This document shows, piece by piece, positions 3,627-23,231 of a DNA stretch of 64,000 bases; positions within the stretch are counted from its first letter, which is position 1, and every line of letters begins with the position of its first letter. The notes below the pieces were generated by a model. It saw only the letters and a list, made by a program, of their open reading frames with translations. It did not search any database and was not told the origin of the DNA. The stretch spans positions 2,100-66,099 of the forward strand of contig CAIOPG010000007.1 of the NCBI GenBank assembly GCA_903860135.1, written 5' to 3'. Both the position numbers and the translations under genes were made by a program. This stretch comes from Candidatus Omnitrophota bacterium (GTDB lineage Bacteria; Omnitrophota; Gorgyraeia; Zapsychrales; Fredricksoniimonadaceae).

Positions 3627-4061
3627 ATGTGTTGGAACAAGATCAAGCAATGGTTTATAAGAAAGCCACGTCAGATATTAGCCATCGATGATAATCCGAT
3701 CGACCAGAGGGTCTTGATCGAGGCGATTCGGCAGACGGGTTGTTTGCCATTGGTCGCGACGACCGGAGCCGAAGGCCTTGCGATGGCGCGTGCGCATCGA
3801 CCGGACGTGATTATCCTTGACGTTTACCTTCCCCGAAAAGAAGGGTTTGATATTGGTCGCCAGATCCGGGGGGATGCCTTGCTCAAGGATGTGTCGCTCA
3901 TGTATTTCACCGTGGCTTCATCTCCGGAATCTATTATAGAAGGGCTAAAACACGGGGATCTTTATGTGTCCAAGCCTTTTCAGTTGGATGATCTGGTCAA
4001 GGCCATCCGTGCTATGCTGGCTCGCCGGCAGGAGCGGGTTGGGATGATGCCCACCCATTAA
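3627..4061 (+). CDS. Single-domain response regulator (CheY-like receiver)
   Basis: ILAIDDNP...IILDVYLP (phospho-acceptor Asp)...VSKPF (conserved Lys); 144 aa with no output domain. Confidence 0.85.
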   Translation: MCWNKIKQWFIRKPRQILAIDDNPIDQRVLIEAIRQTGCLPLVATTGAEGLAMARAHRPDVIILDVYLPRKEGFDIGRQIRGDALLKDVSLMYFTVASSPESIIEGLKHGDLYVSKPFQLDDLVKAIRAMLARRQERVGMMPTH

Positions 4062-4141
4062 TTTTTTCTATCTGGACTTTATAATGAGCTTTTGTTATTA
4101 TATTAAAATATTTTCTGAAGAAAAACCACATGGGAGGAAGT

Positions 4142-4741
4142 ATGCTTAAGAAAATTTTTGGGTTAATGTTCATTCTTTTTATGGCTTTCCAGCTTTCTGC
4201 TTTTGCCGCGATCAATATTGGGCAGAGAACGGGAACGTTGAAGATCACCATGCCCGATAGCACGGTGCTCATCATTGCGCCCGGCGATCCGCTTCCGGTC
4301 ATTCCTGATGGCGCCACGCTGGAAGTTGTTTCTGGTATTGCCGAAATTTCTACGACCGGAGCGTCCACGGTTCAGGTCGTTGCTGGTGGACAGACCATTA
4401 ATGTCACGCCGGCTTCAACGATCAGCATCAGCTTTGAGGCCACAGGAGCGGTGATCGTTGGTGTGACCGAGGGTTCAGCTAATATCGTAACCGCCAGCGG
4501 CGGGACGGCGCATATTGACGCCGGCGATCAGGTCCGTGTTGGTGCTGGCGTTACGGCAGGTTCAGGGTTTGATGTGATCCGGGGGCAGGTAACAGTAACA
4601 CAACCTGACGGGACAACGACCACACAGGAGCCCACAACGGTTGAAGGGTATACGCCGCCGGAACTCCCTAATACTGATGATGTTGACACGACTGTTCAGA
4701 CTGAAGAAACCGCGGCCGATATCAGCCCTGTGGTTCGATAG
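4142..4741 (+). CDS. Secreted Thr/Gly-rich protein with a FecR-like beta-sandwich region
   Basis: Signal peptide MLKKIFGLMFILFMAFQLSAFA; repeated V.V..G...V....T motifs like the FecR domain; start chosen at the second ATG (4142) after GGAGG. Confidence 0.4.
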   Translation: MLKKIFGLMFILFMAFQLSAFAAINIGQRTGTLKITMPDSTVLIIAPGDPLPVIPDGATLEVVSGIAEISTTGASTVQVVAGGQTINVTPASTISISFEATGAVIVGVTEGSANIVTASGGTAHIDAGDQVRVGAGVTAGSGFDVIRGQVTVTQPDGTTTTQEPTTVEGYTPPELPNTDDVDTTVQTEETAADISPVVR

Positions 4742-4785
4742 TCTTGATGTTGTTTAAAAAGTTCATTTTACAAAAAAGAGAGGGA

Positions 4786-6003
4786 ATGATGCAATTATTT
4801 AAATTTGGATTCGCCGCGTTGATTCTGAGCGTTATTTTTAGTCAGCCTGTATTCGCTCAATCTTTTAGGGAAGAGGGCGTGCGCATTGGACGTCATGAAT
4901 TCAAGGACATCAAGGGCTATCGTATCGGGCAGGCCAGCTTAAAGGCAGGCATTTCAACCGAAGGCCGTTATGACAGCAATGTTTATCTGACCTCCAATAA
5001 CAAGAAATCGGATTATATCAGCATCACCAGCCCCAAGTTCCTGTTGGACCTTCCCCTGGGGATCGACGAGCGGCACCTTGTTCAGCTGATGTACACCGCA
5101 GATGCCGGTGCTTTTTCCGATCAGAAGGACCAGAACTACCTTAACCAGAATGCGGCCACCAATATCAATCTGCGCCTGCCTTTCGGTTATTTGAATGTTA
5201 ACAATGATTTTAAAGATACGGTTGACCGTGCCGCGACCGAATTTACGAGCCAGGTTCACCGCAAGGAGAACAAGGCCCAGGCCACCCTCGGTATCGAGGT
5301 CAACAAGCTTTCCTATGAATTAGGGTATTCCAACTTCATAAAAAGGTATTACGACAAGACATACCAGAACATTGAATACAACGAGGATGTTGTTTCCGGG
5401 ATCGCGTACTATCAATTGTTGCCCAAGACAAAAGCCTTGTTGTCCTATGACCGCGGCTTTGTGAATTATACCAAGGACAGCACGCGCGATTCTGTTTATG
5501 ACGAATTCATGGCTGGTTTGAAAGGCGAGTTGACCAGCAAGGTCGTCGGCATTGTAAAAGCAGGGTATCAGACGAGGAATTATGATGCGGCCGGACAGCG
5601 CGGTTATAATGGTTTTGTTTCCGAGGCAGGTTTGATCGGCTCTCTTTCCGAGCGCACCGAATTGACGCTCAAGTATGTGACCACGATCATGGAATCTTCC
5701 TTCGGTAATAACAATTACTATAATGCCAATATCTTGAGTGCTGAACTTGACCAGAAGTTGATGGGCAATTTTAATATTCTGTTAAAGTCGGGTTTCTCGC
5801 GCAACCTTTATCCCGAGAGCGATACGATTTACAACACTAAACGTGCCGACAGCCTGATCTCGGAGGGCGCCGCCCTTCAGTATAAGTTTAAGGATTATGG
5901 CAAGGTCAGCCTGGGGTATGATTATAAGGAGCTGATGTCCAACATTGATGCCAAGGCGTATAACGATAATATTGTTTCCATGCGGTTCGATCTTCTGATG
6001 TAG
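4786..6003 (+). CDS. Outer-membrane beta-barrel protein (putative polysaccharide-export beta-barrel partner, BBP2-like)
   Basis: Signal peptide MMQLFKFGFAALILSVIFSQPVFAQ; alternating Y/aromatic beta-strand pattern throughout; C-terminal MRFDLLM; located directly upstream of the Wza-like gene. Confidence 0.5.
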   Translation: MMQLFKFGFAALILSVIFSQPVFAQSFREEGVRIGRHEFKDIKGYRIGQASLKAGISTEGRYDSNVYLTSNNKKSDYISITSPKFLLDLPLGIDERHLVQLMYTADAGAFSDQKDQNYLNQNAATNINLRLPFGYLNVNNDFKDTVDRAATEFTSQVHRKENKAQATLGIEVNKLSYELGYSNFIKRYYDKTYQNIEYNEDVVSGIAYYQLLPKTKALLSYDRGFVNYTKDSTRDSVYDEFMAGLKGELTSKVVGIVKAGYQTRNYDAAGQRGYNGFVSEAGLIGSLSERTELTLKYVTTIMESSFGNNNYYNANILSAELDQKLMGNFNILLKSGFSRNLYPESDTIYNTKRADSLISEGAALQYKFKDYGKVSLGYDYKELMSNIDAKAYNDNIVSMRFDLLM

Positions 6004-6023
6004 AAAGAGATGGTTCTGGGGAT

Positions 6024-6626
6024 ATGACAATGCGGCGGCTCTTTACAGGGTATGTTTTAATCACGGTCTTTTTAACCGGAGTGGCATTGGCTCAGGCTCC
6101 GGTAAAGCCGACGGCCATTCCGTCAGAATATCAGGTCGGGCCGGAGAATGCCCTTCAGATCGATGTTTATTACGGCAAGAGCGAAAAGATATCCCAGAAA
6201 GTGCGTGTTTCTTCACGCGGGGTCATTAATTTCCCTCTCATCGGGGAAGTCGAGATCATCGGTCTGACGGTTGCCGCCGTGCAGGATAAACTTAAGCAAC
6301 TCCTGGAAAAAGATTATCTGGTTAATCCGCAGGTCACGGTATTCATTGAGGAATACAGCACGGTATCGATCATGGGCGAGGTCAACAAGCCCGGCGCGTA
6401 TCCCATCAAGGGACGACTGACCGTTGTCGAGCTTATTTCGCTGGCCGAAGGGTTTTCCAAGGTAGCCGCCCCCAACAAAGTTAAAGTGATCCATACCAAT
6501 CCCGACGGCACCAAGGACGAAACGCCTGTCCGTGTTTATGACCTGATGAACAAGGATGCCTCTGGCCAAGATAAAGTTGTTCTGCGTTCGGGGGATGTGG
6601 TCATTGTTCCTGAAAGCCTTTTTTAA
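6024..6626 (+). CDS. Polysaccharide export protein, short Wza/OPX family (Poly_export + SLBB domains only)
   Basis: Signal peptide; PES motif region YQVGPENALQIDVY; SLBB-like region ISLAEGF...VKVIH; only 200 aa, so it lacks the C-terminal amphipathic helix of E. coli Wza. Confidence 0.85.
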   Translation: MTMRRLFTGYVLITVFLTGVALAQAPVKPTAIPSEYQVGPENALQIDVYYGKSEKISQKVRVSSRGVINFPLIGEVEIIGLTVAAVQDKLKQLLEKDYLVNPQVTVFIEEYSTVSIMGEVNKPGAYPIKGRLTVVELISLAEGFSKVAAPNKVKVIHTNPDGTKDETPVRVYDLMNKDASGQDKVVLRSGDVVIVPESLF

Positions 6627-6637
6627 GGGGTTCCTGC

Positions 6638-8347
6638 ATGCCTGAATTACAGTCCAACGAGTCGTCAGATGTCATTGAAATAGATCTGCGGGATGTGTTG
6701 CACAAGATCATCAAGCATCGGCAGACGATCATGACAACGGTCGGGATCTGCATGGTCCTTGCACTTGTTTTTTCGTTTACGGCTACACCCATTTTCAGCG
6801 CTTCCAGCCGCATTCTCGTTGAACCCAAACCGCCCAAGATCGTCAAGATCGAGGGCGCGATCCTCCCGGACTATACGGACCGTACTAATTTCTTTAATTC
6901 GCAAATCGAGATTTTGAAGAGTCATACGGTCGCTGAACTTGTGTTCAAGGATCTTGGTCATTATGAAATGTGGGAGCGCCGCGGTCAGCCTGCAGAAAGA
7001 CTTAAGCCTGTTACCGAAAACCAACGCATTGATTTTCTTTTAAAGCATGTGAAGATATCGCCGGTGCGCATGACCCAGGTCATTGAAGTGTCGGCGGAAG
7101 ATCCGGATCCTGTCATGGCGGCGCGCATTGCCAATGGCTGGGCGCGCGCGTATGTGCTTTTTTCATCGCAAGATCAGCTTCTTCAGCGCCGCAGTGAGCT
7201 TGAATCCGACATGGTCCAACAGCTCAAATTCCTCAAGGATAAACATCCGGTCATCATCGGCCTCAGGAACGAGATTGATGCTATCAACGAAAAGATCAAT
7301 AATGAACGTAAGCGGCTGAGCAAGGACGAAGGGGCTTCCGCGCTGACGAGCGATATCACCAATGTGAAGATCCTTGATCGTGCTGAAATTCCTGATCACC
7401 CATCGCGCCCGCGTAAGGCACTTAATGTGGTGCTGGCGCTCGTGCTCGGTCTTTTCGCGGGGGTGGGGCTGGTGTTCCTGTTTGAATCGCTTGACCAAAC
7501 GATCAAGACGCCCGATGATATGCAGGCACTGCTCAAGTTGCTGTGCCTTGTGCCGATCCCGCGTTATGAATCCGACGCAACGCACCCGGACGCGTCTCCG
7601 GAATTTGTGGCGGACAAAGCGCGCCATTCGACCATGGCCGAGGCGTTTCGCAGTCTGCGCACGGGCATTATTTTCAGCAATCCCGATCTTCCCAAGAAAA
7701 CATTCCTTATTACGAGCTCTTCGCCGTCTGAAGGGAAGACAACGGTGGCGGTCAATATGGCGACTGTTTTTGCCCAGGCCGAGGAGCGTGTGATCCTTAT
7801 TGATACAGACCTGCGCAATCCGCGCCTGCACAGCGTTTTCAAGATCGACCGTGCCAATGGGATCACGGACATCCTTGCGTTTGACAAGGCGGACATCGCC
7901 GCGTTCATTCATAAAACAAATATCAAGGGGCTTGATTTTCTGGCATGCGGCGAAGTCCCGCCCAATCCGTCGGAACTTTTAGGGTCAAAGAAGATGAAAG
8001 ACCTTATTGGGAAGCTTTCTACAATGTATGACCGCATTATTTTCGATACACCGCCAGTGCTGGCGGCAACGGATGCGGTTGTCTTGTCCACCCAGGTTGA
8101 TGCCACGATCATTGTCGTCAAGGCCGGGAGCACCCATCGTCAAGCCGCCATACGGAGCGTTGAGGCCTTAAGATCCGTGCACGCCAACGTGCTCGGGGCG
8201 GTGTTCAATATGATCACCAACGGTGCCCAGAATCCGTATTATTACTACTATTATCACTACGGCCATAACGCGGATAAGAAGGTCGCCGGACGATCCAAGG
8301 CCAACGATTTTCTCGCCAGGATCGATCCGCGCAACAAGAAAACCTGA
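6638..8347 (+). CDS. Polysaccharide co-polymerase / tyrosine autokinase (Wzc/EpsB-like) with N-terminal Wzz domain and C-terminal BY-kinase
   Basis: N-terminal TM plus coiled-coil Wzz region; Walker A SSPSEGKTT; Walker A'/B ILIDTDLRNP and IIFDTPP; C-terminal tyrosine cluster NPYYYYYYHYGH encoded by a tat/tac run at about 8237-8262. Confidence 0.9.
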   Translation: MPELQSNESSDVIEIDLRDVLHKIIKHRQTIMTTVGICMVLALVFSFTATPIFSASSRILVEPKPPKIVKIEGAILPDYTDRTNFFNSQIEILKSHTVAELVFKDLGHYEMWERRGQPAERLKPVTENQRIDFLLKHVKISPVRMTQVIEVSAEDPDPVMAARIANGWARAYVLFSSQDQLLQRRSELESDMVQQLKFLKDKHPVIIGLRNEIDAINEKINNERKRLSKDEGASALTSDITNVKILDRAEIPDHPSRPRKALNVVLALVLGLFAGVGLVFLFESLDQTIKTPDDMQALLKLLCLVPIPRYESDATHPDASPEFVADKARHSTMAEAFRSLRTGIIFSNPDLPKKTFLITSSSPSEGKTTVAVNMATVFAQAEERVILIDTDLRNPRLHSVFKIDRANGITDILAFDKADIAAFIHKTNIKGLDFLACGEVPPNPSELLGSKKMKDLIGKLSTMYDRIIFDTPPVLAATDAVVLSTQVDATIIVVKAGSTHRQAAIRSVEALRSVHANVLGAVFNMITNGAQNPYYYYYYHYGHNADKKVAGRSKANDFLARIDPRNKKT

Positions 8348-9786
8348 TGCTGCCCGTTGTTGACGGGGTTCTTTTCCTGAGCCTTGTGTTGGCTCCCCTG
8401 CTTTACGGTTCGGTGCATTTCCTGGCACTGCTTTTGCTGGCGTTGTTTTCCCTCATTGCATTTAATTTGATATATTTGGCACGGCCATGGTCGCTGGGCA
8501 GGGTCTTTGGCTCGCCATGGGTATGGCTGGGATTATTCCTGACGGGGTTCGCCGGTCTTCAGCTTCTTCCCTTGTCGCCGGACATTATCAAGAAATTCTC
8601 TCCCGCGCTCTATGTTTTTTACGCCCGGTATTGCCCTGATGTTTTGCTTGGTCCTGTGGCATCTTCAGTTTATGCCTCAGACACCGTGCGCGGCATCATC
8701 CAGTTTTTGATGTACGGCCTTTTTTTTATGAGTATCCTAATGCGCCTTCAACCTGATCCTGCGCACGAAGAAAATGTGCATTCAGTCAGCTGGCAGAAGT
8801 CGGAATACTTAAAGCTGGGTTGTTTGACCGGCGTCCTGTCGCTCTTATTCCACAGCATTTACGATTTTAATCTGCACATACCTGCTAACGGCCTTTACTT
8901 TACGGTCCTGCTGGCGCTCGGCGTCGGAGCGGCAGGGCAGGCGTATGACCATGCCTTCTTCAGGCGCATGGTGGAATTTATTATCATCTTCGGTTTTATG
9001 GTCGCGCTTTTTGCCATCGTCCAGAAGTTCAGTTATAACGGCCGTATTTACTGGATCGGCATGAAGAATGGCGGGCATCCCGTTGGCCCTTATTGCAATT
9101 ATGATCATTATGCCGGGTTCATGGAACTTTGCTCTGCCGTTGCGGTGGGTATGGCTGTGGCCGGTGTTTTTCACACATCTTTTTTTCGCCGCAAGGGCTT
9201 TATTGAGAAGGTTGTTTGGTTGGCAACAGCTGAAGCCAACAGGACGCTCCGTTATTTATTCATGGCCGTGGTGATGGCGGCTACCATATTCATGTCAACT
9301 TCGCGCGGGGGGATTATGAGTTTTGTGCTCGGTCAGATCATCTTTTTTGCCACTGTGACGTGGGCTGCAGGCCGGGCGCGCAAAGGCCACCGGCTCGTCG
9401 GGATACTGACTACCGTTGCATTGCTTATCGGCGTCATGGTGATCTGGCTTGGCCCTGAGGCATTTCTTAAACGCTTTCGCCTGACTTCCATAGAGAAGAT
9501 CGTCAAGATGGAAGGATCGGATGCTGACCGTATACGTTTTTATGTCGGCGCAACCCATGTGATCAAGGATTTTCCGGTCACTGGAACGGGGCTTAGCACT
9601 TTTGGTACGAATTTTACCCGTTACCGCTGGTTTGATTTTCGTGGGCGCATGGATTATCTGCGCTACACCCACAATGATTATCTTCAGCTTGTTTCCGAGA
9701 CGGGGGCGGGCGGGATGATCTTTCTTTTTGGGTTCATGATCTTTTATACAGGTGCGTATATCCGTGTGGCGAGGAAGCTCGCATGA
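8347..9786 (+). CDS. O-antigen ligase / Wzy-family polytopic membrane protein
   Basis: About 12 TM helices; large periplasmic loop containing the TSRGGIMSF motif typical of the Wzy_C/O-antigen ligase domain; start overlaps the Wzc stop (TGATG). Confidence 0.6.
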   Translation: MLPVVDGVLFLSLVLAPLLYGSVHFLALLLLALFSLIAFNLIYLARPWSLGRVFGSPWVWLGLFLTGFAGLQLLPLSPDIIKKFSPALYVFYARYCPDVLLGPVASSVYASDTVRGIIQFLMYGLFFMSILMRLQPDPAHEENVHSVSWQKSEYLKLGCLTGVLSLLFHSIYDFNLHIPANGLYFTVLLALGVGAAGQAYDHAFFRRMVEFIIIFGFMVALFAIVQKFSYNGRIYWIGMKNGGHPVGPYCNYDHYAGFMELCSAVAVGMAVAGVFHTSFFRRKGFIEKVVWLATAEANRTLRYLFMAVVMAATIFMSTSRGGIMSFVLGQIIFFATVTWAAGRARKGHRLVGILTTVALLIGVMVIWLGPEAFLKRFRLTSIEKIVKMEGSDADRIRFYVGATHVIKDFPVTGTGLSTFGTNFTRYRWFDFRGRMDYLRYTHNDYLQLVSETGAGGMIFLFGFMIFYTGAYIRVARKLA

Positions 9787-10496
9787 GGACTTTTGTCATG
9801 GGCGATATCCACGGGGCCTACAAGGCGCTCGAGCAGTGCCTGGCGCGCGCGCCCTTTGATCCTGCGCTCGACCGACTGATCGTGCTCGGCGATGTTTGCG
9901 ATGTTTATCCGCAGGTGAACGCCTGCATCGACACATTGCTGTCGTTGAAGCACTGTGATTTTATCATCGGCAACCATGATCTGTGGGCGCTGGACTGGGC
10001 GATGACCGGCCGCAAACCAGCGATGTGGCTTGAGCAGGGCGGGGCAGAAACCATGGCTTCTTATGGCGGCGCGGCGATGCCACAGGCCCATATTGATTTC
10101 CTGAACAGGGGCTTGCCCTGGCTTGAGGTGGCAGGGCGGGTGTTTGTGCATGCCGGCTTTGACCCTGACCGGCCTTTAAAAGAGCAGGGCCTTCGGCGCC
10201 TGGCGTGGGACCGCGCGCTGTTGAGCATCGCCGTGATGCGCCGCGGCACCGGGCCTATAGGCTGTTACAGGGAAATTTTCCTGGGCCATACGCCGACCAT
10301 GCGTTTTGGCAGTACCGTTCCGTTTCAGGCGTGCAATGTATGGGCCATGGACACAGGCGCGGGCTGGTCGGGAAAGCTCTCCATCATGGATGTGGAAAGC
10401 AAAGAATTCTGGCAGTCCGACACGACACCCGGGCTGTATGGTGTGGCTGGCCGTGGCGACGGGCGTCGTCCCGGACCAGGCGAAGGGGCAAATTAA
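9783..10496 (+). CDS. Calcineurin-like metallophosphoesterase (PPP/ApaH-type Ser/Thr/Tyr phosphatase family)
   Basis: GDIHG, GDVCD and GNHD metal-binding motifs in canonical order; ATGA overlap with the upstream gene. Confidence 0.8.
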   Translation: MRTFVMGDIHGAYKALEQCLARAPFDPALDRLIVLGDVCDVYPQVNACIDTLLSLKHCDFIIGNHDLWALDWAMTGRKPAMWLEQGGAETMASYGGAAMPQAHIDFLNRGLPWLEVAGRVFVHAGFDPDRPLKEQGLRRLAWDRALLSIAVMRRGTGPIGCYREIFLGHTPTMRFGSTVPFQACNVWAMDTGAGWSGKLSIMDVESKEFWQSDTTPGLYGVAGRGDGRRPGPGEGAN

Positions 10497-10497
10497 T

Positions 10498-10899
10498 ATG
10501 CGCAGCCTTGTTATTGTCTTTAGTCTTTTATTCGCCGCCCTTCTTTTGTGCACAGGGGCGGGCGAGTTCTTTTTTCTTAAAGGCCAGGCGGACAAGAACG
10601 CCGGGTTCATCAAACAGGCCCAGCAGTTAAACCCGCTGGTGTCGGATTATTTTTATGAGGAATACCGCCTTACGGGCCATATCAACGCCCTTCACCAGGC
10701 TATTCGCCTTGAGCCAACAAAGCCGCAGTATCATATGTATTACGGCCTTGCCGTTCTCAAGCCGTTGCCGCGCACGCGTGCCGGCGATCAGCTGGCTGTC
10801 ACCGAAATATGCCTGGCCGCGGCCCTGAAGCCGTACAGCAAGGCCTATGCCCAAGCCTGCGCCCGGTACAGCACCGCGATCGCATCAGCGGTGCCATGA
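10498..10899 (+). CDS. Small secreted hypothetical protein
   Basis: ATG at 10498 followed by signal peptide MRSLVIVFSLLFAALLLCTGAG; about 133 aa; no recognizable domain. Confidence 0.4.
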   Translation: MRSLVIVFSLLFAALLLCTGAGEFFFLKGQADKNAGFIKQAQQLNPLVSDYFYEEYRLTGHINALHQAIRLEPTKPQYHMYYGLAVLKPLPRTRAGDQLAVTEICLAAALKPYSKAYAQACARYSTAIASAVP

Positions 10900-10963
10900 C
10901 ACGTCGGGATAGATGAACATTGAAATGTTGTAATTATAACTTAAATTGTTGAGGCGTAGTGAG

Positions 10964-12535
10964 ATGAGGAGACCTGACACTATTATTTCTGACACTATTA
11001 TTTCTGACACTATTATTTCTCAAAACTTTAAAAAACAACTTCCCATCAACCTTATCTCCAACGTCGGGTATTTTGCCCTGAACGTGGTGATCGGGATATG
11101 GATGGTGCCGTTTCTGATCCGGCATCTGGGTGTTGAAGGTTACGGGTTCATTCCGTTAGCTTCATCAGTTACGTCTTATGTGAGCTTAATTACTCTTGCG
11201 CTGAATGGCGCTGTGTCTCGATATCTTGTCATAGCATTGCAAAAAAATGATGTCGAAGGGGCGAATAAAATATTTAATACTGCATTCTGGGCACTTGCGT
11301 TTCTTTCAGTTATTTTGGTTCCTTTAGTCGGGGTATTTTCTTGGTTTGTTCCAAGAATATTTCATGTGCCAGTACACCTTGTTTTTCAGGTGCAGGGACT
11401 TTTTTTCATGATATTACTGTCTTTTGTTATTTCTGTTTTCTCTTCGATATTTTATGTTTCGACTTTTGCTAATAATCGTCTTGATTTACGTAATTTGATC
11501 GACATGAGCAGTCTTTCTGTTAGAGCAATACTTATTATTATATCTATTACTTTTGTATCGACAAGTTTGACTAATGTCGGAGTGGCATATTTTTCTGGTG
11601 CATTGATAGCGCTACTCCTTGGGCATGCCTTTTTTAGGAAATTAACACCATCTTTAAAGATTTCACGGAAATTCTTTGATCTCTCGAAGTTGCGGGAGCT
11701 CACGTCTATGGGGGGATGGCTTGTTGTTGGTCAAACGGGCACATTGTTTTTCTTGCAGATTGATCTTATTCTTTGCAATATTTTATTTAGTGCCCATGAT
11801 ACGGGTGTTTACGCGGCGCTTATTCAATGGAATTTCTTGTTAAGAAGTATGGCGGGTGTGGTGGCTGCTGTTTTAGCTCCGGTAGTGACCATAAGTTATG
11901 CATTGAATCAAAAAGAGCGGATTGTTCGAATGTCTCAATGTGCGGTGAAATATATGGGGTTAGGCGTCGCCTTGCCTGTTGGCTTTTTGTTCGGGTTTGC
12001 TGATAGTATTTTACGTGTTTGGTTAGGGCTGGACTTTGTTCAGTATGCTCCTTTATTAAGATTGATGACTTTTTATTTAACGATTAATCTTGCCGTTTTG
12101 CCTTTGTTTGGTCTGAGTGCGGCGTATAATAAAGTTAAGTGGCCTGGGATTGTTACTTTTTTAAGCGGTATTATAAATATCTTTGTAGCGGTTTTCTTGG
12201 CTAAGTTTCTTGGCTGGGGCTTGTACGGCATTGCTTCAGCTGGATTTATTGTTTTAACATTTAAGAATGTGATATTTGCGCCATTATACTTTGCGCATGT
12301 TTTAAACATTTCAAAGCTTTCTTTCTTTAGGCCGCTTATAACGAGTTGCGTGGCAGTTGCTGTTGTTTCTGGGGTGGCTTATACGTTATCGAGATTTGTT
12401 GTATTGGAGAATTTTGGGGCTGTTCTCATGGCAGGATTAGGCATTTCAATTGTTTATCTAATTTTTGTTTGGTTATGTTTGTTTCAAGCAGAAGACCGGA
12501 GCTTGTTTCTGGGATTGTTTAAGAGGGGTGGGTAA
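10964..12535 (+). CDS. Oligosaccharide-unit flippase (Wzx, MOP/polysaccharide biosynthesis protein family)
   Basis: About 12-14 TM helices; Polysacc_synt-like N-terminus INLISNVGYFALNVVIG; start taken at ATG 10964 (the ORF track starts at TTG 10946). Confidence 0.7.
   Translation: MRRPDTIISDTIISDTIISQNFKKQLPINLISNVGYFALNVVIGIWMVPFLIRHLGVEGYGFIPLASSVTSYVSLITLALNGAVSRYLVIALQKNDVEGANKIFNTAFWALAFLSVILVPLVGVFSWFVPRIFHVPVHLVFQVQGLFFMILLSFVISVFSSIFYVSTFANNRLDLRNLIDMSSLSVRAILIIISITFVSTSLTNVGVAYFSGALIALLLGHAFFRKLTPSLKISRKFFDLSKLRELTSMGGWLVVGQTGTLFFLQIDLILCNILFSAHDTGVYAALIQWNFLLRSMAGVVAAVLAPVVTISYALNQKERIVRMSQCAVKYMGLGVALPVGFLFGFADSILRVWLGLDFVQYAPLLRLMTFYLTINLAVLPLFGLSAAYNKVKWPGIVTFLSGIINIFVAVFLAKFLGWGLYGIASAGFIVLTFKNVIFAPLYFAHVLNISKLSFFRPLITSCVAVAVVSGVAYTLSRFVVLENFGAVLMAGLGISIVYLIFVWLCLFQAEDRSLFLGLFKRGG
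10976..11020 (+). repeat. Perfect 3 x 15-bp tandem repeat (gacactattatttct) inside the 5' coding end of the Wzx gene, encoding DTIIS x3
   Basis: Read directly from the sequence: copies at 10976-10990, 10991-11005 and 11006-11020. Confidence 0.95.
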
Positions 12536-13725
12536 TGAATATAGTGAATGCTGTGTGTATTCTTTTCTTGGTGATTCTTTTTCTTTACTCTTTAAAAGAT
12601 TTATTTATAAAAATAATAAGAAAATGGAATTCTTTGCATAGATTTTCTTGGGTGGATAATGATGTGTATTTTAAAAAGGTAAGTTCTGTCGCTCAACGAT
12701 GGCTTTTGGATCCGCCAATGTTGCCGGCGTTTGATGTGGCAGTAGGGATGCCATGGAACTATATTTCTTATCGAAGGGTTTGTGAGGAGGTGCGACGTGG
12801 TTGGCCAATGGGTCTTTTGGCGAAAGGAGTTATGGTCGCTGATATTTATGCTGGTGGGCGTCTCGATGTTTTGGAAAAGTTCTATGCAAGATATTTAACA
12901 AGTGAAGGTCGTTTTCGATTTTCTTTAAAATATGTCGATGATGCTTTGCATGGGGAAGTTCTTTTGTATTTATATAAGAAGACCGGAAATCAAAAATATC
13001 GACAAGCTTCAGATGAGATCTTTTATTGGCTATTGGGGCAGTATAGGCGGTCTAAAACAACATTGCCTTATCGAGATAAGATAAGTGTAAGATTTGTCGA
13101 CACGCTGGGGATGATTATTCCATTTTTGTTTGAATACAATGCGCAGTTTGTGAATAAAGATGCTCAAGAGTTGGCGGTATTGCATATGGAGGATTTTATT
13201 TTATTCGCTGTAGAGAAAAGGTCGGGGTTGCCGTTTCACGGGTATAATGTTGAGTTTTCTAATATGCCAACAGGGCTTTTCTCCTGGGGGCGTGGGGTGG
13301 GGTGGTATGTGTTAGGTCTAGTGGAGGTTTTAACGCAATTAACTTCAAGTAATACGAAGTTCGAGTTCTTTCAGCAATCTTTTATTAAGTTAGCAAATAC
13401 GGTACGCGATTTACAAAAGAAAGATGGAGGTTGGGGTGATATCATTAATATCTCAACGAGCAAATATGATTCTAGTGCGACAGCAATGATTCTTTATGCA
13501 TTCAAGAAGGCAATGATGGCTGGAATTATTGATCCGTCGTATCAAGACATGCTTTCTCAAGGGTTCCATCGGTTGCAGGGGTCTACAACGAAGGCAGGGG
13601 TTGTTTTGGATTCGCAAGGGGTGTGTATGGGGCTTAATAAACATTCCGGAGTATTTTCTTTCACGCCTTATTCTCAAGGGATGGTTCTTGCGGCGACTTC
13701 CGTTATGATTTTTGAATTAGATTAG
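12535..13725 (+). CDS. Glycoside hydrolase family 88/105-like protein (unsaturated glucuronyl/rhamnogalacturonyl hydrolase fold) with an N-terminal membrane anchor
   Basis: VDTLGMIIPF and WGRGVGWYVLGL motifs resemble the DxLGM / WxRGxGW signatures of the GH105/GH88 alpha6/alpha6 barrel; N-terminal hydrophobic helix. Confidence 0.45.
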   Translation: MNIVNAVCILFLVILFLYSLKDLFIKIIRKWNSLHRFSWVDNDVYFKKVSSVAQRWLLDPPMLPAFDVAVGMPWNYISYRRVCEEVRRGWPMGLLAKGVMVADIYAGGRLDVLEKFYARYLTSEGRFRFSLKYVDDALHGEVLLYLYKKTGNQKYRQASDEIFYWLLGQYRRSKTTLPYRDKISVRFVDTLGMIIPFLFEYNAQFVNKDAQELAVLHMEDFILFAVEKRSGLPFHGYNVEFSNMPTGLFSWGRGVGWYVLGLVEVLTQLTSSNTKFEFFQQSFIKLANTVRDLQKKDGGWGDIINISTSKYDSSATAMILYAFKKAMMAGIIDPSYQDMLSQGFHRLQGSTTKAGVVLDSQGVCMGLNKHSGVFSFTPYSQGMVLAATSVMIFELD

Positions 13726-13743
13726 AAAAGGACTTGGTTCCGT

Positions 13744-14955
13744 ATGGTTCAAAAGAACTTGTTTATTCTAGCCGGCAATGGTTCATACGACAATCGCGGT
13801 TGTGAAGCGATTGTAAGGGGAACAACGGAGATCATCAGGCAACACTTTGATGTGCCGGAGTTTCTGTCGATTAGTAATTTTCAGAATGAGGATCAATTTA
13901 AGGCTCAAGTTAAGCATGAATGTGATGGCGCGATAGCACATGCAAGAACGTTTCGTAGTAATAGGCGGTTTTCGCCAGGCTGGTTCTTGTATGCGGCATT
14001 GCGGTTTTCTATGCGGCGTCTTCGTGTTGAGCTTATTTACCGTGAAATGTTGCATGTGCTTAAAGAATCGAGAGCTGTTCTTTCTATTGGAGGGGATAAT
14101 TATTCGTTAGATTATGGCAAGCCATTATTGTATACGACGCTGGATGATTTGGTTTTAAGGCGAAAGAAGCCGATTATTATTTGGGGTGCTTCTGTAGGGC
14201 CGTTTGATGGAATTCCTGGTTATGAAAAGTATATGAGCAAGCATCTTAAAAGAGTGACAGGTATATTTGTACGTGAAACGGCAACTTTAGAGTATCTGGC
14301 ATCAATAGGGGTGAAGGAAAACGTAACGCTTGTCGCGGATCCGGCATTTTTACTCAAGATTGCTCAGCCAGCCATCGTTCCGGATATTAAGGCAGAGTCT
14401 ATTGGTATAAATTTAAGTCCTTTCATGGCCAAATATTTGACCGATGGCGATCTTTCTTGTTGGGTTAAGTTATCTGCACAGATTGTTCGTGAGGTGTCTG
14501 AAGCGACTGGACGTAAGATTTATTTGATCCCGCATGTTACAAGTCCGCATACTAATGATTATACTTTTCTGAAGAATGTGTTGGGTTTATTGGATGATGT
14601 TGATGTTGCTCTGATTGATGATAAGTATAGCGCGGCTGAGATTAAGTGGATTATTAGCAAGATGGCAGTCTTTGCCGGAGCTAGGACGCACGCGACGATC
14701 GCGGCTATTTCCACATGTGTGCCAACGTTGAGTTTTGTTTACAGCATTAAAGCTAGAGGGATTAACCGGGATGTTTTTGGGCATGAAAGATTTTGTATCT
14801 TAAAAAAAGCTTGTCGACCAAAACTTGTAGCTGAAAAAGTGCAAGAAACATTGGCGGAGGCTGATGGAATTCGAGAACAACTTAAATCTATTGTTCCTGA
14901 GTTTCAGAAGAAAGCTTTATCAGCGGGACAGAAATTATTAGAGGTCTGTGTTTAA
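13744..14955 (+). CDS. Polysaccharide pyruvyl transferase family protein (WcaK/CsaB-like)
   Basis: N-terminal ILAGNGSYDNRGCEAIVRGT (the GN.G..N.G motif of PS_pyruv_trans); about 400 aa; typical neighbourhood in EPS loci. Confidence 0.6.
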   Translation: MVQKNLFILAGNGSYDNRGCEAIVRGTTEIIRQHFDVPEFLSISNFQNEDQFKAQVKHECDGAIAHARTFRSNRRFSPGWFLYAALRFSMRRLRVELIYREMLHVLKESRAVLSIGGDNYSLDYGKPLLYTTLDDLVLRRKKPIIIWGASVGPFDGIPGYEKYMSKHLKRVTGIFVRETATLEYLASIGVKENVTLVADPAFLLKIAQPAIVPDIKAESIGINLSPFMAKYLTDGDLSCWVKLSAQIVREVSEATGRKIYLIPHVTSPHTNDYTFLKNVLGLLDDVDVALIDDKYSAAEIKWIISKMAVFAGARTHATIAAISTCVPTLSFVYSIKARGINRDVFGHERFCILKKACRPKLVAEKVQETLAEADGIREQLKSIVPEFQKKALSAGQKLLEVCV

Positions 14956-14956
14956 T

Positions 14957-15895
14957 ATGCCTAAAGTTTCCATTGTTATTCCGTTATACAACAAAGAGAA
15001 ATATATTGCCCGGGCGATTAATTCTATCTTGGCTCAGACGCTATCGGATTGCGAAATTGTTGTAGTTGATGATGGGTCAACGGATAAAAGTGCTGATATT
15101 GTTAGGTCTTTTGACGACTCTCGTATTCATTTGATTCAGCAGGCTAATGCGGGTGTTTCAGTAGCAAGAAATAAGGGGATCAAAGAATCAAAAGCAGAAC
15201 TTGTCGCGTTTTTGGACGCGGATGATGAATGGATGCCTCAGTTCCTCCAAGAGATGGTTGTGTTTATTTCAAAAAAACCTGTAGGGCTTGTTTTATCGAA
15301 CTATTTGAATGGTGCAACAGGGAAGCCGTTCTTCCCAACGGAAAAACGTTGGGAAGGGATTATCCCAGACTATTTTAAACAAGTATTGCGATGGAATAAA
15401 GACATCGCTTTTTCATCTGCCCTCCTTGTGAGGCGGTCGTGTTTTCAGAAGACGGGAATATTCCCTGTGGGTGTCGCTTATGGGGAAGATGTGGATATGT
15501 GGAATCGTATTGCCTGGGTTACGCTGGTGGGATATATTCCTGAGCCATTAGCGATATATCACAACACTACTGAAGGGGCGTGCCATGCTTTTTCTCGTTT
15601 GGGACCACCGTATCCTGTTTTCTTAAAGACATTCAAGTCCTGGAAGAAAGAAAAGTTGATTTCTGCCAGCTTGTTGCGTAGTAGCGAAGAGTATGCGAAT
15701 TGGACGCTTTTATATTACGTTAGACGCCTCATAGGGGCGAAGAGAAAGATCGAAGCTTTTAAAGTTTTTTGTTTCGAATGTTCGTTTTCTTTGGCAACCG
15801 GCCATCTTTATGTAAAAATATTTTGTTTGTTTCTTGTGCCAGATTCGTTATTGTTTTTCTATAGAAAGATTCTAAAATTCTTTTTTAAAAGTTAA
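14957..15895 (+). CDS. Glycosyltransferase family 2
   Basis: VSIVIPLYNKEKYIARAINSILAQT...VVDDGSTD...DADD motifs of GT-A/GT2; start at ATG 14957 just after the upstream stop. Confidence 0.85.
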   Translation: MPKVSIVIPLYNKEKYIARAINSILAQTLSDCEIVVVDDGSTDKSADIVRSFDDSRIHLIQQANAGVSVARNKGIKESKAELVAFLDADDEWMPQFLQEMVVFISKKPVGLVLSNYLNGATGKPFFPTEKRWEGIIPDYFKQVLRWNKDIAFSSALLVRRSCFQKTGIFPVGVAYGEDVDMWNRIAWVTLVGYIPEPLAIYHNTTEGACHAFSRLGPPYPVFLKTFKSWKKEKLISASLLRSSEEYANWTLLYYVRRLIGAKRKIEAFKVFCFECSFSLATGHLYVKIFCLFLVPDSLLFFYRKILKFFFKS

Positions 15896-15921
15896 TAAAG
15901 TTGTTAAGAAAGCGATTGTTA

Positions 15922-16539
15922 ATGAAAAAGAAAAAAATTATTGCTCATTTGATCAGTATGTTCCCGTCGAACTGTGTGCGTGTTATTCTTTATAGATTGA
16001 TCATGAAATATGAAATTTCGGATTCTTATATAGGGTTTGGCACCGTTATAGCTGTTGATAAGGCGATCATTAAGAATAGTTCTGTTGGGAGATCAAATTG
16101 TTTCTATGGCCCGATGAGCGTGATGATCAAAGATGGTTGCTGTATAGGCAATCACAATCAATTTATGTGCGGCAGCTGGGTTGAGGAGCGGTCATTTTCC
16201 GATCAAAAGTATGCTCGCTTGCTAGAGATCAATGAGAAGGTCTTAATAACATCTGATCACTATTTTGATGTTGCTGGAAATATCTCTATTGGTCAAGGGA
16301 CCTGGGTTGCGGGGAGGGGGTCTCAATTTTGGACGCACGGCGTCGGTGTTTCCGATCGTGATATTCATATAGGAGAATCGTGTTATTTGGGAAGTGCGGT
16401 GAGATTTGCCCCAGGCGTTTTGATAGGAAATAAAACTTTGGTCGCACTGGGGAGTGTTGTGACAAAGAAATTCGGTGTTAATAATGTATTATTGGGCGGG
16501 GTGCCAGCAACTATTTTGAAAGAGAATTATATCTGGTAA
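15922..16539 (+). CDS. Hexapeptide-repeat (LbH) acetyltransferase, WcaF/CysE-like sugar O-acetyltransferase
   Basis: Left-handed beta-helix hexapeptide repeats (IGxxxxIGxxxxI) in the C-terminal half; ATG at 15922. Confidence 0.55.
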   Translation: MKKKKIIAHLISMFPSNCVRVILYRLIMKYEISDSYIGFGTVIAVDKAIIKNSSVGRSNCFYGPMSVMIKDGCCIGNHNQFMCGSWVEERSFSDQKYARLLEINEKVLITSDHYFDVAGNISIGQGTWVAGRGSQFWTHGVGVSDRDIHIGESCYLGSAVRFAPGVLIGNKTLVALGSVVTKKFGVNNVLLGGVPATILKENYIW

Positions 16540-16564
16540 GATTTGGAAGGAATTCCGAGGCAAT

Positions 16565-17836
16565 ATGTTATTAAGATTTTCGTTCGACAGGGTTAAATAT
16601 CTTAAGTTCTGTGCTTTTTGCTGGGGGTTGTCACTTGGCTTGCCAAGCACTTCCATCCCTCTTTCTAATATTTTCGGGATTACGTTGGCGCACTTCTTGA
16701 TGTTTGCGACACTAACAGCTGTATTATCAAGATTAAGAAGTTTTCATCTTTTATGTTGGATGGCACTTGTTTCTCCGGCATTAATTTCCACATTGTTCAT
16801 CCCGACTATTGATGCGGGATTAACGCTAAAGTATCTTGGAGATTTGGTTATTGCTACCTTGCCGCTTTTGTTTACAATGGTTTTGGCATTGTCGTTTGGA
16901 TTGGAGATATTGAAAGGTTCAGCTGTTATTATTCTTGTAAATGTTGCATTTGGTTTTTACCAGATGTTATGTGGGGTTTTGGGGCGTACGTTTGATTTGG
17001 GTTTCTTATATAATTATCCACAGTATAACTTTACAGCAAACGGGTTACAAGCAATGTGTGATACGTTCCGGCCTTTCGGGTTGTTCCCGGAGCCTTCGGC
17101 GACGAACGCAGCACTTTCTCCGTGGATATTGTTATTGCTTGCGCTTGGATTTGGGCTCATAAAATTCAAACAGTCCCTTGTTGATGAAGAATGCCTTAGG
17201 ATGTTTAAGGTTGCGGGTCTTTTGGGGGTTCTTTTGGTCTTTTTTTCAAAGTCGGGGCATACGATTTTTCTTTTGTTTGGGTTGTCGGGCATCTTTATTT
17301 TATTAGTGAAGAAATATGTTAGACAAAGGCGATGGAGTCTTTTAACTCTGACATTGGCCGTTATTCCTTTGATTGTTGTCGTTGGACTTTACTTGACATC
17401 CCAAAGAATAGAGTCTCAATTTGATCCTGCAGGTGTTGGGAATAATTCCTGGTCGAAGCGTTTTAATGCGATCATGGATAGTGTTGATATTTGGCTTAAT
17501 TATGGCTTCTTAAGGATATTCTTCGGTTGCGGGGGAGACGCGGCGCGGATCGTTTTTGCAGAGAAGGGAAGTGATGCGATATGGAGCGTATTGATGACAC
17601 ACGTCGTTAATACTGGGATTTGTGGACTCTTATTTATTCTAGGGGTCTTTGTCGCCGGACTTAATGCTATAAAAAGATCCGGGGTTGTTCTTGTTGGATT
17701 TGTTTTCTTCTCGGTGTGGTTGTTAGGCATCACATTTACAACCTGTTATCAATCGTTAACGGCTGTTTGGGCATCTTTAGGCTGGCTTCTTGTATGGGAT
17801 AAGTGTGTGAAAAGATCGGATGAGGTTGCATGTTAA
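16565..17836 (+). CDS. Polytopic membrane protein, putative O-antigen/EPS polymerase (Wzy-like)
   Basis: 10-12 hydrophobic helices with one larger loop; no soluble domain; sits between transferases in the repeat-unit-specific block. Confidence 0.45.
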   Translation: MLLRFSFDRVKYLKFCAFCWGLSLGLPSTSIPLSNIFGITLAHFLMFATLTAVLSRLRSFHLLCWMALVSPALISTLFIPTIDAGLTLKYLGDLVIATLPLLFTMVLALSFGLEILKGSAVIILVNVAFGFYQMLCGVLGRTFDLGFLYNYPQYNFTANGLQAMCDTFRPFGLFPEPSATNAALSPWILLLLALGFGLIKFKQSLVDEECLRMFKVAGLLGVLLVFFSKSGHTIFLLFGLSGIFILLVKKYVRQRRWSLLTLTLAVIPLIVVVGLYLTSQRIESQFDPAGVGNNSWSKRFNAIMDSVDIWLNYGFLRIFFGCGGDAARIVFAEKGSDAIWSVLMTHVVNTGICGLLFILGVFVAGLNAIKRSGVVLVGFVFFSVWLLGITFTTCYQSLTAVWASLGWLLVWDKCVKRSDEVAC

Positions 17837-19029
17837 AGATTTTCATGGTTTCTTTTACAGGGAAGGGCGGGCATCCTGTTTATGTTAATGAAGTTATTGT
17901 TGCGTTGAATAAGAATTGTTCTGCTGACGTTAAGGTGGAGTTTCTTGCTCCGCAAGATTTGGAAAAGAAATATTTTAGAAACGGCTATGTTGTTCATGCG
18001 GACCTCCCTGCATATCCTGTCCGTGGTAAAAAACTTAATGCCCTATGGCGGACCGAGCAGATTGGGCATTTTATAAGATCATATTTAGTTTGTTTCCTAT
18101 GGCTGAGGAAACAGAAGGATTCTTGTGGGGTTCATTTTCAGGATTCTCTTTGGTTATTGGGGATGTTCTTTTGGGTATTTCGTTTCTTGAAGGTGCCTTT
18201 ATTCTTTACAGTTCATAATATTAAACCCCATAAGTATTCGGGTTTGATGCCACATGTGATCGAAGAAAAGTTTTACAAATTTGTTTGGAGATCATGCGAG
18301 GGGCTTTTTGTTCATTCGCAAGGATTGAAGTCTGAGGCCATTCAATTTCTTGGGAACGGACATCCTTCGATCTATGTAGTTCCGCATGGGTTATTCTTGG
18401 TTAACAGCAGTGTGATGACCCCATTATTGATCCGCATGAACAAGAAACGGCTTCTTTTTTTCGGAGCCATAAGAGAAAACAAGGGGCTGCATCTTTTGTT
18501 GGAAGCAATGAAGTCTCTTGATGGATTTGAGTTAACGATCGCTGGCAAGATCGCGGATCATGTTTATTGGAGGGAGACGGTAACGCCTTTACTGGATTCC
18601 TTACGGTTACAAGATAAGAAAGTAACGTTGATAGATGTGTTTATTCCAGACCATGAGGTGGCGGCATTGTTTGATTCCCATAGTGCGGTGATTTTATCGT
18701 ATACGCAGGGCTTTCATTCGCAAAGCGGGGTTTTGCATCTGGCAGTGGCTTTAGACACTCCTGTTGTGGCAACATCAGTAGGGGGAATAGGTGACTTGAT
18801 CGAGAAGTATAAAGTAGGGACTTTGGCAAGATCATGCGATGCCGCACAAGTGAAGGACGCGATCTTGTCTCTCTTTAAAGAAGAGGCTGGTCAACTGCAA
18901 GCGAATTTTAATCTGGCTAAGGAAGATCTTTCCTGGGTTAAATTGGCCGCTGGTACTTGCCATGCGTATAAATTTTCACAGTCATTGAAGAAAAAGAACT
19001 GCGCCCTTGCGGATGGATGTGTTTCATGA
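17830..19029 (+). CDS. Glycosyltransferase family 4 (GT-B, GT1/GT4 retaining type)
   Basis: C-terminal FFGAIRENKGLHLLLEA... and the glycine-rich donor-binding region typical of Glycos_transf_1. Confidence 0.75.
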   Translation: MLKIFMVSFTGKGGHPVYVNEVIVALNKNCSADVKVEFLAPQDLEKKYFRNGYVVHADLPAYPVRGKKLNALWRTEQIGHFIRSYLVCFLWLRKQKDSCGVHFQDSLWLLGMFFWVFRFLKVPLFFTVHNIKPHKYSGLMPHVIEEKFYKFVWRSCEGLFVHSQGLKSEAIQFLGNGHPSIYVVPHGLFLVNSSVMTPLLIRMNKKRLLFFGAIRENKGLHLLLEAMKSLDGFELTIAGKIADHVYWRETVTPLLDSLRLQDKKVTLIDVFIPDHEVAALFDSHSAVILSYTQGFHSQSGVLHLAVALDTPVVATSVGGIGDLIEKYKVGTLARSCDAAQVKDAILSLFKEEAGQLQANFNLAKEDLSWVKLAAGTCHAYKFSQSLKKKNCALADGCVS

Positions 19030-20231
19030 CGATAGTCTATATCACGGCGTTCATCCCTTTTGGCAGGACTGAATCTTTTGTTTTGGAAGAAATCTCCTCA
19101 ATAAAGGGATTGTTCTCCAATATTTTAATTATTCCCCGAAATCCTAGCAAAGAAGTTTTCCATCAAAAGGCCAAAGAGCTTGCCAAGAATGCTTTACGGC
19201 TGCCGTTGTTTAATTTTGAAATAGTGAGGGTGTTCTTTTTTTCGCTGTTGTCATTGGATGTATGGAAAGTTTTGATCAAGATCGTATTTAATTCGCGTAA
19301 TTTCAAAATATGTTTGAAGAATTTATCAATTTTCCCCAAGAGTATCTATTTGTCGCGTATTTTGAAGGAGAAGAATGTCGGCCACATTCATGCGCATTGG
19401 GCGGGTACCACGACTACGATGGCATATATCATTCATTGTTTAACAGGCATTCCGTATAGTTTTACTTCACATCGATGGGATATTTATGAGAACAATATGC
19501 TGAAGGAAAAAGTAAACACAGCCGTTTTCGCGCGGTGCATTTCCATAAAAGGCAAAAATGATGTTATTTCAATAGTTGGGCAAGAGTTTGAAAAGAAGGT
19601 GCAGGTTCTGCATTTGGGTGTTGCGCTGCCCGAACTGATCTTTAATGGCAGCCATTCTAATAAAGATTTTATAGTGATGACGCCGGCTAATCTTTTGCCC
19701 GTTAAAGGGCATCAGTATATGATTGAGGCCTGTGATCTATTAAAAAAAAGAGGGATCAAAGTAAGGTATTGGATTGTCGGCGATGGCGAACTTGAGCCCG
19801 GTTTAAAGAAGCAGGTAATAAATTTGAAATTAGGGGAAGATGTTTTATTTTTGGGTCGTGTTCCACACGAAAAGGTTATGCGGATGTACCAAAATAAAGA
19901 AGTTGATCTGGTCGTTTTGCCAAGTATTAATACGAATGATGCGCAACATGAAGGGATCCCTGTCGCTTTAATGGAGGCGATGGCATATCAAATCCCGGTT
20001 ATTTCGACAGATACAGGTTCGATCCCAGAATTGTTGGTTGATGGCGGCGGGCTTTTGGTGAGTGAGAAAAGCGCGGATGACCTGGCGGATGCTGTGGAAC
20101 GATTATTGAAGGATAAGGATTTGTATAATAATTCGGGCGTTAGCGGGCGAAGAAAGATCGAGAAAGATTTTTCAGAAAATATGATTAGCCGACGTTTGGC
20201 TGAACTGTTTTCTTCAAAAGTGCAGAAGTAA
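19026..20231 (+). CDS. Glycosyltransferase family 4 (GT-B)
   Basis: KGHQYMIEA...GDGELEP...EGIPVALMEAMAYQIPVISTDTGSIPELL (E-x7-E motif region); ATGA overlap with the upstream gene. Confidence 0.85.
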   Translation: MTIVYITAFIPFGRTESFVLEEISSIKGLFSNILIIPRNPSKEVFHQKAKELAKNALRLPLFNFEIVRVFFFSLLSLDVWKVLIKIVFNSRNFKICLKNLSIFPKSIYLSRILKEKNVGHIHAHWAGTTTTMAYIIHCLTGIPYSFTSHRWDIYENNMLKEKVNTAVFARCISIKGKNDVISIVGQEFEKKVQVLHLGVALPELIFNGSHSNKDFIVMTPANLLPVKGHQYMIEACDLLKKRGIKVRYWIVGDGELEPGLKKQVINLKLGEDVLFLGRVPHEKVMRMYQNKEVDLVVLPSINTNDAQHEGIPVALMEAMAYQIPVISTDTGSIPELLVDGGGLLVSEKSADDLADAVERLLKDKDLYNNSGVSGRRKIEKDFSENMISRRLAELFSSKVQK

Positions 20232-20233
20232 AC

Positions 20234-21391: not shown

Positions 21392-21400
21392 GGATTTAAA

Positions 21401-21526
21401 ATGTCTGAATTTATTTCCGTCATTATTCCCTGCCGCAACGAAGAGAAATTCATCGCCGGATGTCTGGGGAAAAGAGGGGATACGTTGACGATCAGTATGC
21501 GATCAGCCGTATTCTGGCTCAAATGA
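21401..21526 (+). pseudogene. Truncated 5' fragment (41 codons) paralogous to the N-terminus of the GT2 gene at 22169
   Basis: 21408-21470 is about 90% identical at nucleotide level to 22181-22243 (MSEFISVIIPCRNEEKFIAGCL vs FFISVIIPCRNEERFIAKCL); similarity stops abruptly after tgtctgg and the frame terminates after 41 aa. Confidence 0.6.
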
Positions 21527-21597
21527 AGAAGTAGCTTGAAAATAATTATACTACAAATATTTATTATGGTATTGTTGTAGTGTAAATGGAGGCGGAT

Positions 21598-23206: not shown

Positions 23207-23231
23207 TGGCAGGGGCTAAAAGGGGCTTTGT

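Follow-up and report, generated by a model that had tools for sequence, protein, structure and literature searches.

Does a perfect short tandem repeat at the very beginning of a polysaccharide flippase gene regulate the production of surface polysaccharide, or is it simply a rapidly changing stretch of coding sequence? The locus that raises this question lies in a stretch of 64,000 nucleotides (here called the window), in which three exact head-to-tail units of GACACTATTATTTCT can be read directly between positions 10976 and 11020 (gacactattatttct x3 across that interval). An earlier note on this DNA had described three 15-bp copies encoding DTIIS-DTIIS-DTIIS just past the start codon of a Wzx flippase gene, and had offered two interpretations: (i) a slippage-prone array that might underlie phase or quantitative variation of O-unit flipping, or (ii) a recent duplication artefact. 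The description itself was confirmed by the sequence, by Tandem Repeats Finder (TRF) and by the position of the units in codons 5–19. TRF reported a period of 15, 3.1 copies, 100% matches and a score of 94, which makes this the top-scoring tandem array of the 64-kb window (the runner-up scored 50). The dinucleotide CT that precedes the first unit matches the unit end, giving a full tract of 47 nt and corresponding to the extra 0.1 copy counted by TRF. With up to two mismatches allowed, the unit (27% GC) was found at three sites only in the window, all of them in the tract, relative to an expectation of 0.11, and none of 100 shuffles reached three, confirming that the repeat is real and beyond chance.

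The units are in frame within a plus-strand open reading frame that extends from 10946 to 12535, and two minus-strand open reading frames that run across the repeat (41 and 63 aa) were treated as spurious. We also rejected the possibility that the array is a regulator-binding iteron or an att site at an island boundary: the unit is found nowhere else in the window, a 15-bp period is not helical, and, for the att site, the ends of the surrounding island (~4050 and 27974) are far away. An Rfam search of the window returned no match. The coordinates of the features discussed here are collected in Table 1.

Table 1. Features of the repeat-bearing locus, in window coordinates
Feature	Position	Strand	Basis
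Exopolysaccharide island of ~23.9 kb that includes the repeat-bearing gene	4050..27974	+	Pfam and strain comparison
Conserved 153-aa gene, 57% GC, syntenic in the relative L005	10438..10899	+	Gene comparison
Shine-Dalgarno-like GAGG, 9 nt 5' of the ATG at 10964	10951..10954	+	Read from sequence
Predicted Wzx-like MOP-family oligosaccharide flippase gene (wzx), 523 aa plus stop	10964..12535	+	Pfam, gene calls, AlphaFold2, Foldseek, hydropathy
Perfect tandem repeat, three units of GACACTATTATTTCT plus 5' CT	10974..11020	+	Sequence, TRF, pattern search
Two sigma-70-like consensus matches, CTGACA-16 nt-TATTAT, 10/12	10974..11016	+	Consensus only
Predicted initiating polyprenyl glycosylphosphotransferase	23232..24605	+	TIGR03013 (XrtA/PEP-CTERM EpsB_2), 401 bits versus a cutoff of 393

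The gene product matched the Pfam family Polysacc_synt (PF01943) with 40.4 bits, relative to a cutoff of 28.2, and the sources of its homologues label them “oligosaccharide flippase family protein” or EpsK; a search of NCBIfam with the flippase protein gave no match. An AlphaFold2 model built from a 54-sequence alignment had a mean pLDDT of 90.6 and a pTM of 0.87, and Foldseek placed it with MATE transporters, MurJ and WzxE at a probability of 1.00 and TM values of about 0.6–0.75, with an identity to the solved MOP members of 13–17% only. By its PF01943 match and predicted MOP fold the protein is therefore a Wzx-like MOP flippase, as had been proposed. Its N-terminus reads MRRP(DTIIS)3Q and is followed by a conserved NFKKQLPxNLxxN motif, with TM1 beginning at approximately residue 30 by hydropathy. 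Residues 1–20, with a pLDDT of ~48–56, are the only stretch near the N-terminus that is modelled with low confidence.

Public gene calls for two versions of this protein (P0001 and P0095) begin MRRP(DTIIS), and both the BLASTP offset and the codon list concur in placing the wzx ATG at 10964; a start at 10961 was discarded as one codon too early by the BLASTP offset. A comparable layout, GAGG followed after 8 nt by a GTG start, is present in L005, the closest relative for which DNA was available (75% amino acid identity and the same upstream genes). The repeat unit itself contains no in-frame ATG, GTG or TTG codon, just ATT, and the first canonical in-frame start past the repeat is a GTG at codon 41, which is within TM1 and beyond KQLPxNLxxN. 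The repeat is thus translated, as DTIIS x3 at residues 5–19. An alternative start inside the repeat, where ATT is the only candidate codon, was rejected, as L005 shares the upstream GAGG-start layout, and an AGGAGA found 3' of the ATG is just the two Arg codons.

The flippase gene belongs to an exopolysaccharide (EPS) island that is absent from L011, a strain 94–97% identical. It is preceded, on the same strand, by island genes for a BBP2 porin, Wza, Wzc (Wzz, GNVR and P-loop domains), a Wzy_C protein, a metallophosphoesterase and the conserved 153-aa protein, and it is followed by genes for a GH88 enzyme, a pyruvyl transferase, GT2 and GT4 enzymes, an acetyltransferase and the initiating transferase. 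The partners expected of a Wzy-dependent pathway (Wza, Wzc, Wzy_C, glycosyltransferases and Bac_transf) share the same-strand cluster of wzx. The 153-aa gene ends at a sharp compositional break: precisely where the low-GC wzx begins, GC content drops from 0.57 to 0.40, and it stays low until ~24 kb. The wzx stop codon overlaps the GH88 start at 12535, suggesting that the two genes are read as one unit. Because the initiating transferase scores above the TIGR03013 cutoff and is accompanied by Wza and Wzc, the locus is marked as EPS-type. This context favors an exopolysaccharide-type Wzx/Wzy locus, producing EPS or capsule over O-antigen, and “O-unit flipping” was too specific a term for it. The gene resembles Wzx/PST-type MOP flippases (WzxE, MurJ; structures 9g9n and 6nc6) in its Polysacc_synt match, its predicted MOP fold and its Wzy-like, Wzc, Wza and initiating-transferase neighbors; it differs in that none of the other members examined has an N-terminal tandem repeat, and in that its locus appears to be of the EPS (PEP-CTERM/XrtA-type) rather than the O-antigen kind. 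The organism is probably a member of Candidatus Omnitrophota from stratified-lake metagenomes. For the adjoining MTHFR gene, the best named homologues are all from Candidatus Omnitrophota (84% and ~72% identity), and several of the wzx homologues likewise come from Omnitrophota.

The copy number of the repeat is polymorphic among closely related strains. A protein cluster formed at 90% identity had two members: P0095 (523 aa, two contigs), which equals the window protein, and P0001 (518 aa; four contigs, e.g., ERZ1426836 and ERZ1426828), which is identical to it at 518/518 aligned residues, minus one DTIIS. The DNA of the shorter allele was reached through a look-up of the upstream 153-aa protein, which yielded two contigs, each with a private difference from the window. 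Compared over 4005 nt, L012 (BUCK21-1_SAMEA6872856_METAG-scaffold_4585) has a single SNP relative to the window (8052 C>T) and a 15-nt gap; for L014 (ERZ27313295 k141_202719), compared over 2763 nt, the differences are another SNP (11117 A>T, Ile52Phe) and the same 15-nt gap. The three-copy ENA contig BUCK21-1_SAMEA6872998_METAG-scaffold_9 was identical to the window over 21,572 nt; it follows the same pipeline naming as L012 and comes from a different sample. Thus, two units are carried by L012, L014 and the four contigs of P0001, and three by the window (L001) and the two contigs of P0095. No other allele state was encountered in the public assemblies compared, and the differences are between samples.

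Divergence of the flanks between the two alleles amounts to 0–1 SNP in 2.8–4 kb, and the Wzc and GH88 proteins encoded in the flanks do not differ among six and seven contigs, respectively, with both alleles included. Given such near-identical flanks, the difference between two and three copies makes the repeat the fastest-changing site of this 3–4 kb region. Further, the two-copy allele occurs on at least three slightly different haplotypes, indicating that two copies are probably the more common and the older state. The instability that the earlier note had anticipated was therefore borne out, in that near-identical strains of other samples have two copies instead of three, and the comparison across strains that it had recommended revealed a copy number that is not invariant.

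It could be argued that one of the two copy numbers is absent from the DNA and arose during assembly. For k ≤ 31, we reasoned, the three-copy allele contains every k-mer of the two-copy allele, and small-k assemblers could collapse the repeat. However, the 47-nt tract is far below both the length of 2 x 150-bp reads and the final k of 141 used by MEGAHIT; contigs with k141_ names carry two copies; a single pipeline yielded three copies in one sample and two in another; and the two-copy contigs bear distinct private SNPs. Judging by the prefix of their names, the BUCK21-1 contigs probably stem from the data of Buck et al. (2021) on stratified lakes, a set of 2 x 150-bp reads assembled with MEGAHIT (PMC8121793). 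A k = 31 assembly fits this picture as well. To the right of the repeat, the Logan assembly of run ERR4195066 has a contig (L010) that matches the window at 100% identity. It starts at 10991, a position exactly predicted, by reasoning from the graph, as the exit of a de Bruijn cycle that only at least three copies create. At this k the two-copy path is a sub-path of the three-copy graph, which leaves the ERR4195066 assembly blind to coexistence of the alleles. The Logan contig on the left-hand side (L013) stops at 10959, so that 31 nt between it and L010 are uncovered and unaccounted for. With both alleles recurring in independent assemblies, and with the k = 31 break fitting at least three copies, we regard an artefact as highly improbable; of the “recent duplication artefact” suggested previously, only the recent duplication is retained, on the evidence of the homologues.

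None of the ~90 homologues has the repeat, as the earlier note had asked to be checked. The seven closest distinct homologues (53–74% identity) start M-x(2-8)-[FL][KR]KQLP, without a DTIIS segment, and of the 95 retrieved proteins none but the two alleles of this gene has a tandem peptide repeat at its N-terminus. Consistent with this result, TRF detected no tandem repeat at the 5' ends of wzx from L002, L004 and L005. The absence of the repeat from homologues indicates that the duplication is recent and lineage-specific. Scans of genome contigs and metagenome contigs returned only relatives of ≤75% identity, none of them of this species, and no further alleles, and a literature search on wzx, tandem repeats and phase variation turned up no earlier case of a flippase with an in-frame repeat at its N-terminus.

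The homologues also show how the segment that carries the repeat varies. Conservation of the DNA begins at AAyTTyAAAAAACAA (NFKKQ), directly 3' of the repeat, and the sequence preceding NFKKQLP is not conserved among homologues. In 53 homologues, between 7 and 38 residues (median 17) precede an invariant Asn, which is N29 here; the corresponding numbers for one, two and three units of the repeat are 18, 23 and 28, all of which are inside the homologue range. In L005, 11 residues precede FKKQLP, and the window protein with a single unit would have 12; the one-copy state of the window gene matches the N-tail length of L005. By these alignments and by the low model confidence of residues 1–20, the repeat sits in an N-terminal tail that is tolerant of changes in length. 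The idea that a change in copy number would keep the frame and vary this tail has held up, with a 15-bp unit and tails of 18, 23 or 28 residues, but the accompanying idea that it would redefine the start codon has not, for want of any ATG, GTG or TTG.

Does this variation regulate the flippase? Classical ON/OFF phase variation might be expected where a surface-polysaccharide gene begins with a perfect repeat that varies in copy number among strains, and known capsule genes do switch through repeats or duplications (PMC1391919; PMC11163986). A pneumococcal example is wciZ, in which a TA repeat of variable length at the 5' end sets serotype 15B apart from 15C (PMC1391919). The array described here is like that of wciZ in its location in a surface-polysaccharide gene and its strain-variable copy number; however, a wciZ-type unit is not a multiple of three and toggles the frame, which a 15-bp unit cannot do. 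Also comparable are the spontaneous tandem duplications that lead to reversible capsule phase variation in pneumococcal cap3A, cap8E and tts (Waite et al., as summarized in PMC11163986 and PMC1391919). They share with our repeat the character of a short de novo tandem duplication in a capsule or EPS biosynthesis reading frame, reversible by precise loss of a copy; yet, according to those summaries, they inactivate the enzyme (OFF), whereas the duplication here is in frame, lies away from the conserved core and is found in alleles that both look intact. Inactivation of the product, the mark of a cap3A-type switch, is not seen: the repeat is upstream of the conserved motif and TM1, and the modelled fold is undisrupted. 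Nor is there a switch of frame or of promoter spacing, as in an ON/OFF contingency locus, since no change in copy number alters the frame, the unit has no in-frame stop and no canonical start, and both alleles encode full-length proteins. An ON/OFF switch is therefore scarcely credible, and the proposal of phase variation fails on the inability of the unit to shift the frame.

Copy number might act as a quantitative “rheostat” on initiation of flippase translation, either through mRNA structure around the Shine-Dalgarno (SD) sequence and start codon or by lengthening an AT-rich, unstructured 5' coding ramp; the low GC content of the unit speaks for this reading. In folding predictions, the SD region is able to form pairs with the end of the last unit together with CAA. 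For one sequence context, the predicted probability that the SD is unpaired was 0.03, 0.06 and 0.22 for one, two and three copies, and ~0.2 for three or more. Averaged over 12 combinations of flanks, the predicted opening energy of positions -16 to +13 was 14.4, 13.9, 13.2 and 13.1 kcal/mol for one to four copies, a small monotonic fall that reaches a plateau from three copies. Between the two alleles that were observed, however, the step is ~0.7 kcal/mol, far less than the variation with flank choice, for which values lay at 9–19 kcal/mol across contexts, and the putative SD hairpin is without support from conservation, since the relatives lack the repeat. Quantitative variation, as previously suggested, would thus rest on a predicted difference smaller than that caused by the choice of flanks, and we consider such control of translation unlikely.

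The array might instead influence transcription. Its two sigma-70-like matches (10974–11001 and 10989–11016) each take a -35-like hexamer from one unit and a -10-like hexamer from the next, and exist only through the adjacency of units: there is one such match with two copies and two with three, and, reading from the sequence, the one-copy state would be without a -10 hexamer. An internal promoter born of the repeat could allow the GH88, pyruvyl-transferase and glycosyltransferase genes farther downstream to be transcribed without dependence on the upstream operon. Both 10/12 matches are purely array-derived, and there are six promoter-like sites in 900 nt versus 1.1 expected, although the sigma-70 consensus may not be that of Omnitrophota. 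Against this reading, the two are mutually dependent consensus matches in AT-rich DNA, the resulting transcripts would be without the wzx start codon, and the overlap of wzx with GH88 suggests joint reading. We consider a promoter of this kind very unlikely. Combining the two ideas, the array would be a copy-number-dependent tuner of the EPS island, in which additional units either loosen an SD-sequestering hairpin or add a sigma-70-like promoter and slippage sets graded expression of the flippase and the downstream glycosyltransferases among the cells of a population; this, too, seems quite improbable. Tuning of expression by copy number is, in sum, weakly supported.

In-frame coding VNTRs, or minisatellites, are used in bacterial MLVA typing, and slipped-strand mispairing is the accepted mechanism of their variation. 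The array shares several features with this class: perfect head-to-tail units, in frame and of a length that is a multiple of three; a copy number that differs between near-identical strains; and location in a length-tolerant segment. It differs from MLVA VNTRs in its host, an uncultured Omnitrophota-like lake bacterium, in its position in the N-tail of a MOP flippase, and in having just two or three copies. We therefore think it likely that the repeat is a young in-frame coding VNTR in a length-tolerant N-tail, present as two or three units among near-clonal lake populations; that it was generated by slippage and is neutral, or nearly so, are inferences.

According to this explanation, replication slippage would have duplicated a native 15-bp segment that codes for part of the N-terminus (codons 5–9), which is flanked by a 2-nt CT microhomology. 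Once perfect repeats were established, slipped-strand mispairing could add or remove whole units, and natural populations that are otherwise almost identical would thereby come to carry two or three copies. With each such step, the protein would gain or lose one DTIIS, five residues, ahead of the conserved KQLPxNLxxN/TM1 region. As gain or loss of a unit leaves the frame, the start codon and the folded MOP core unchanged, the polymorphism is most likely neutral, or nearly so, for the flipping of EPS repeat units.

If it were true that copy number tunes EPS expression, contingency-type variation would come to include an uncultured phylum that is not pathogenic, as well as a repeat that stays in frame; the evidence now available does not support such tuning. 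The polymorphism does bear on the flippase family, in that it shows the N-terminal tail of this family to tolerate insertions of five residues, and on assembly, in that assemblers with a small k break at the repeat or could collapse it. Most likely, the repeat serves mainly as a hypervariable strain marker, and, even if merely a neutral VNTR, it would separate near-identical Omnitrophota-like populations in lake metagenomes.

The two near-identical strain contigs that carry two copies of the 15-bp repeat in wzx, rather than the window's three, are separated from the window by only two SNPs, at 8052 and 11117. Two contigs from two different samples (L015 and L016) both stop at 10896, which is where the upstream gene ends and precisely where GC content drops (0.57 to 0.40). 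The Logan contig to the left of the repeat in run ERR4195066 (L013) stops at 10959, leaving 10960-10990 uncovered until its right-hand counterpart, L010, begins. Strain heterogeneity, or a variant lying just 5' of the ATG, may be the cause of these contig ends within 10896-10991.

The repeat array itself (10974-11016) yields two sigma-70-like hexamer pairs (CTGACA-16-TATTAT, 10/12 consensus matches), one at each unit-unit junction; a lone unit would form none. A further short in-frame repeat is found within the same locus, an imperfect 12-bp x2 tandem repeat, TATTATCACTAC, at 8237-8260, which encodes part of the tyrosine-rich C-terminal tail (YYYYYYHY) of the Wzc-like protein. A Planctomycetales MAG contig, L003, carries a 54-bp unit with the palindrome GTGGTTATTTATAACCA in arrays at 8311-8433 (2.3 copies) and 9604-9833 (4.2 copies), with 94% matches, just 5' of a wzx homologue starting at approximately 10001.

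Features of the window beyond the repeat array, and SNPs of the two-copy contigs
Feature	Window position	Location	Details
AbiEii-type nucleotidyltransferase toxin	25-978	left edge	type IV toxin-antitoxin / abortive infection
SNP C>T	8052	wzc	private to L012
SNP A>T	11117	wzx	Ile52Phe; private to L014
NeuB homologue 1	28871-29935	adjacent glycan cluster
Second MOP flippase	34524-36023		same strand; Polysacc_synt_3 PF13440, 239 bits
NeuB homologue 2	51359-52951	adjacent glycan cluster	GNAT domain fusion

A single plus-strand glycan super-locus spans nearly all of the 64-kb window. The second MOP flippase sits in a neighbouring glycan cluster, together with dTDP-sugar, methyltransferase and nonulosonic-acid genes, and the AbiEii-type toxin gene lies upstream of an MTHFR gene.

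We compared the EPS region (4050-27974) with positions 1-3099 of a Logan contig (SRR14761150; L011) from a related strain, whose flanks are 97.4% and 94.5% identical to those of the window at the nucleotide level. Past 28761, the sugar genes differ between the two strains. Because the response-regulator gene in the related strain is joined directly to the Peptidase_C1 gene, the EPS cluster (~23.9 kb), of which the wzx with the repeat is part, is in its entirety a presence/absence island.
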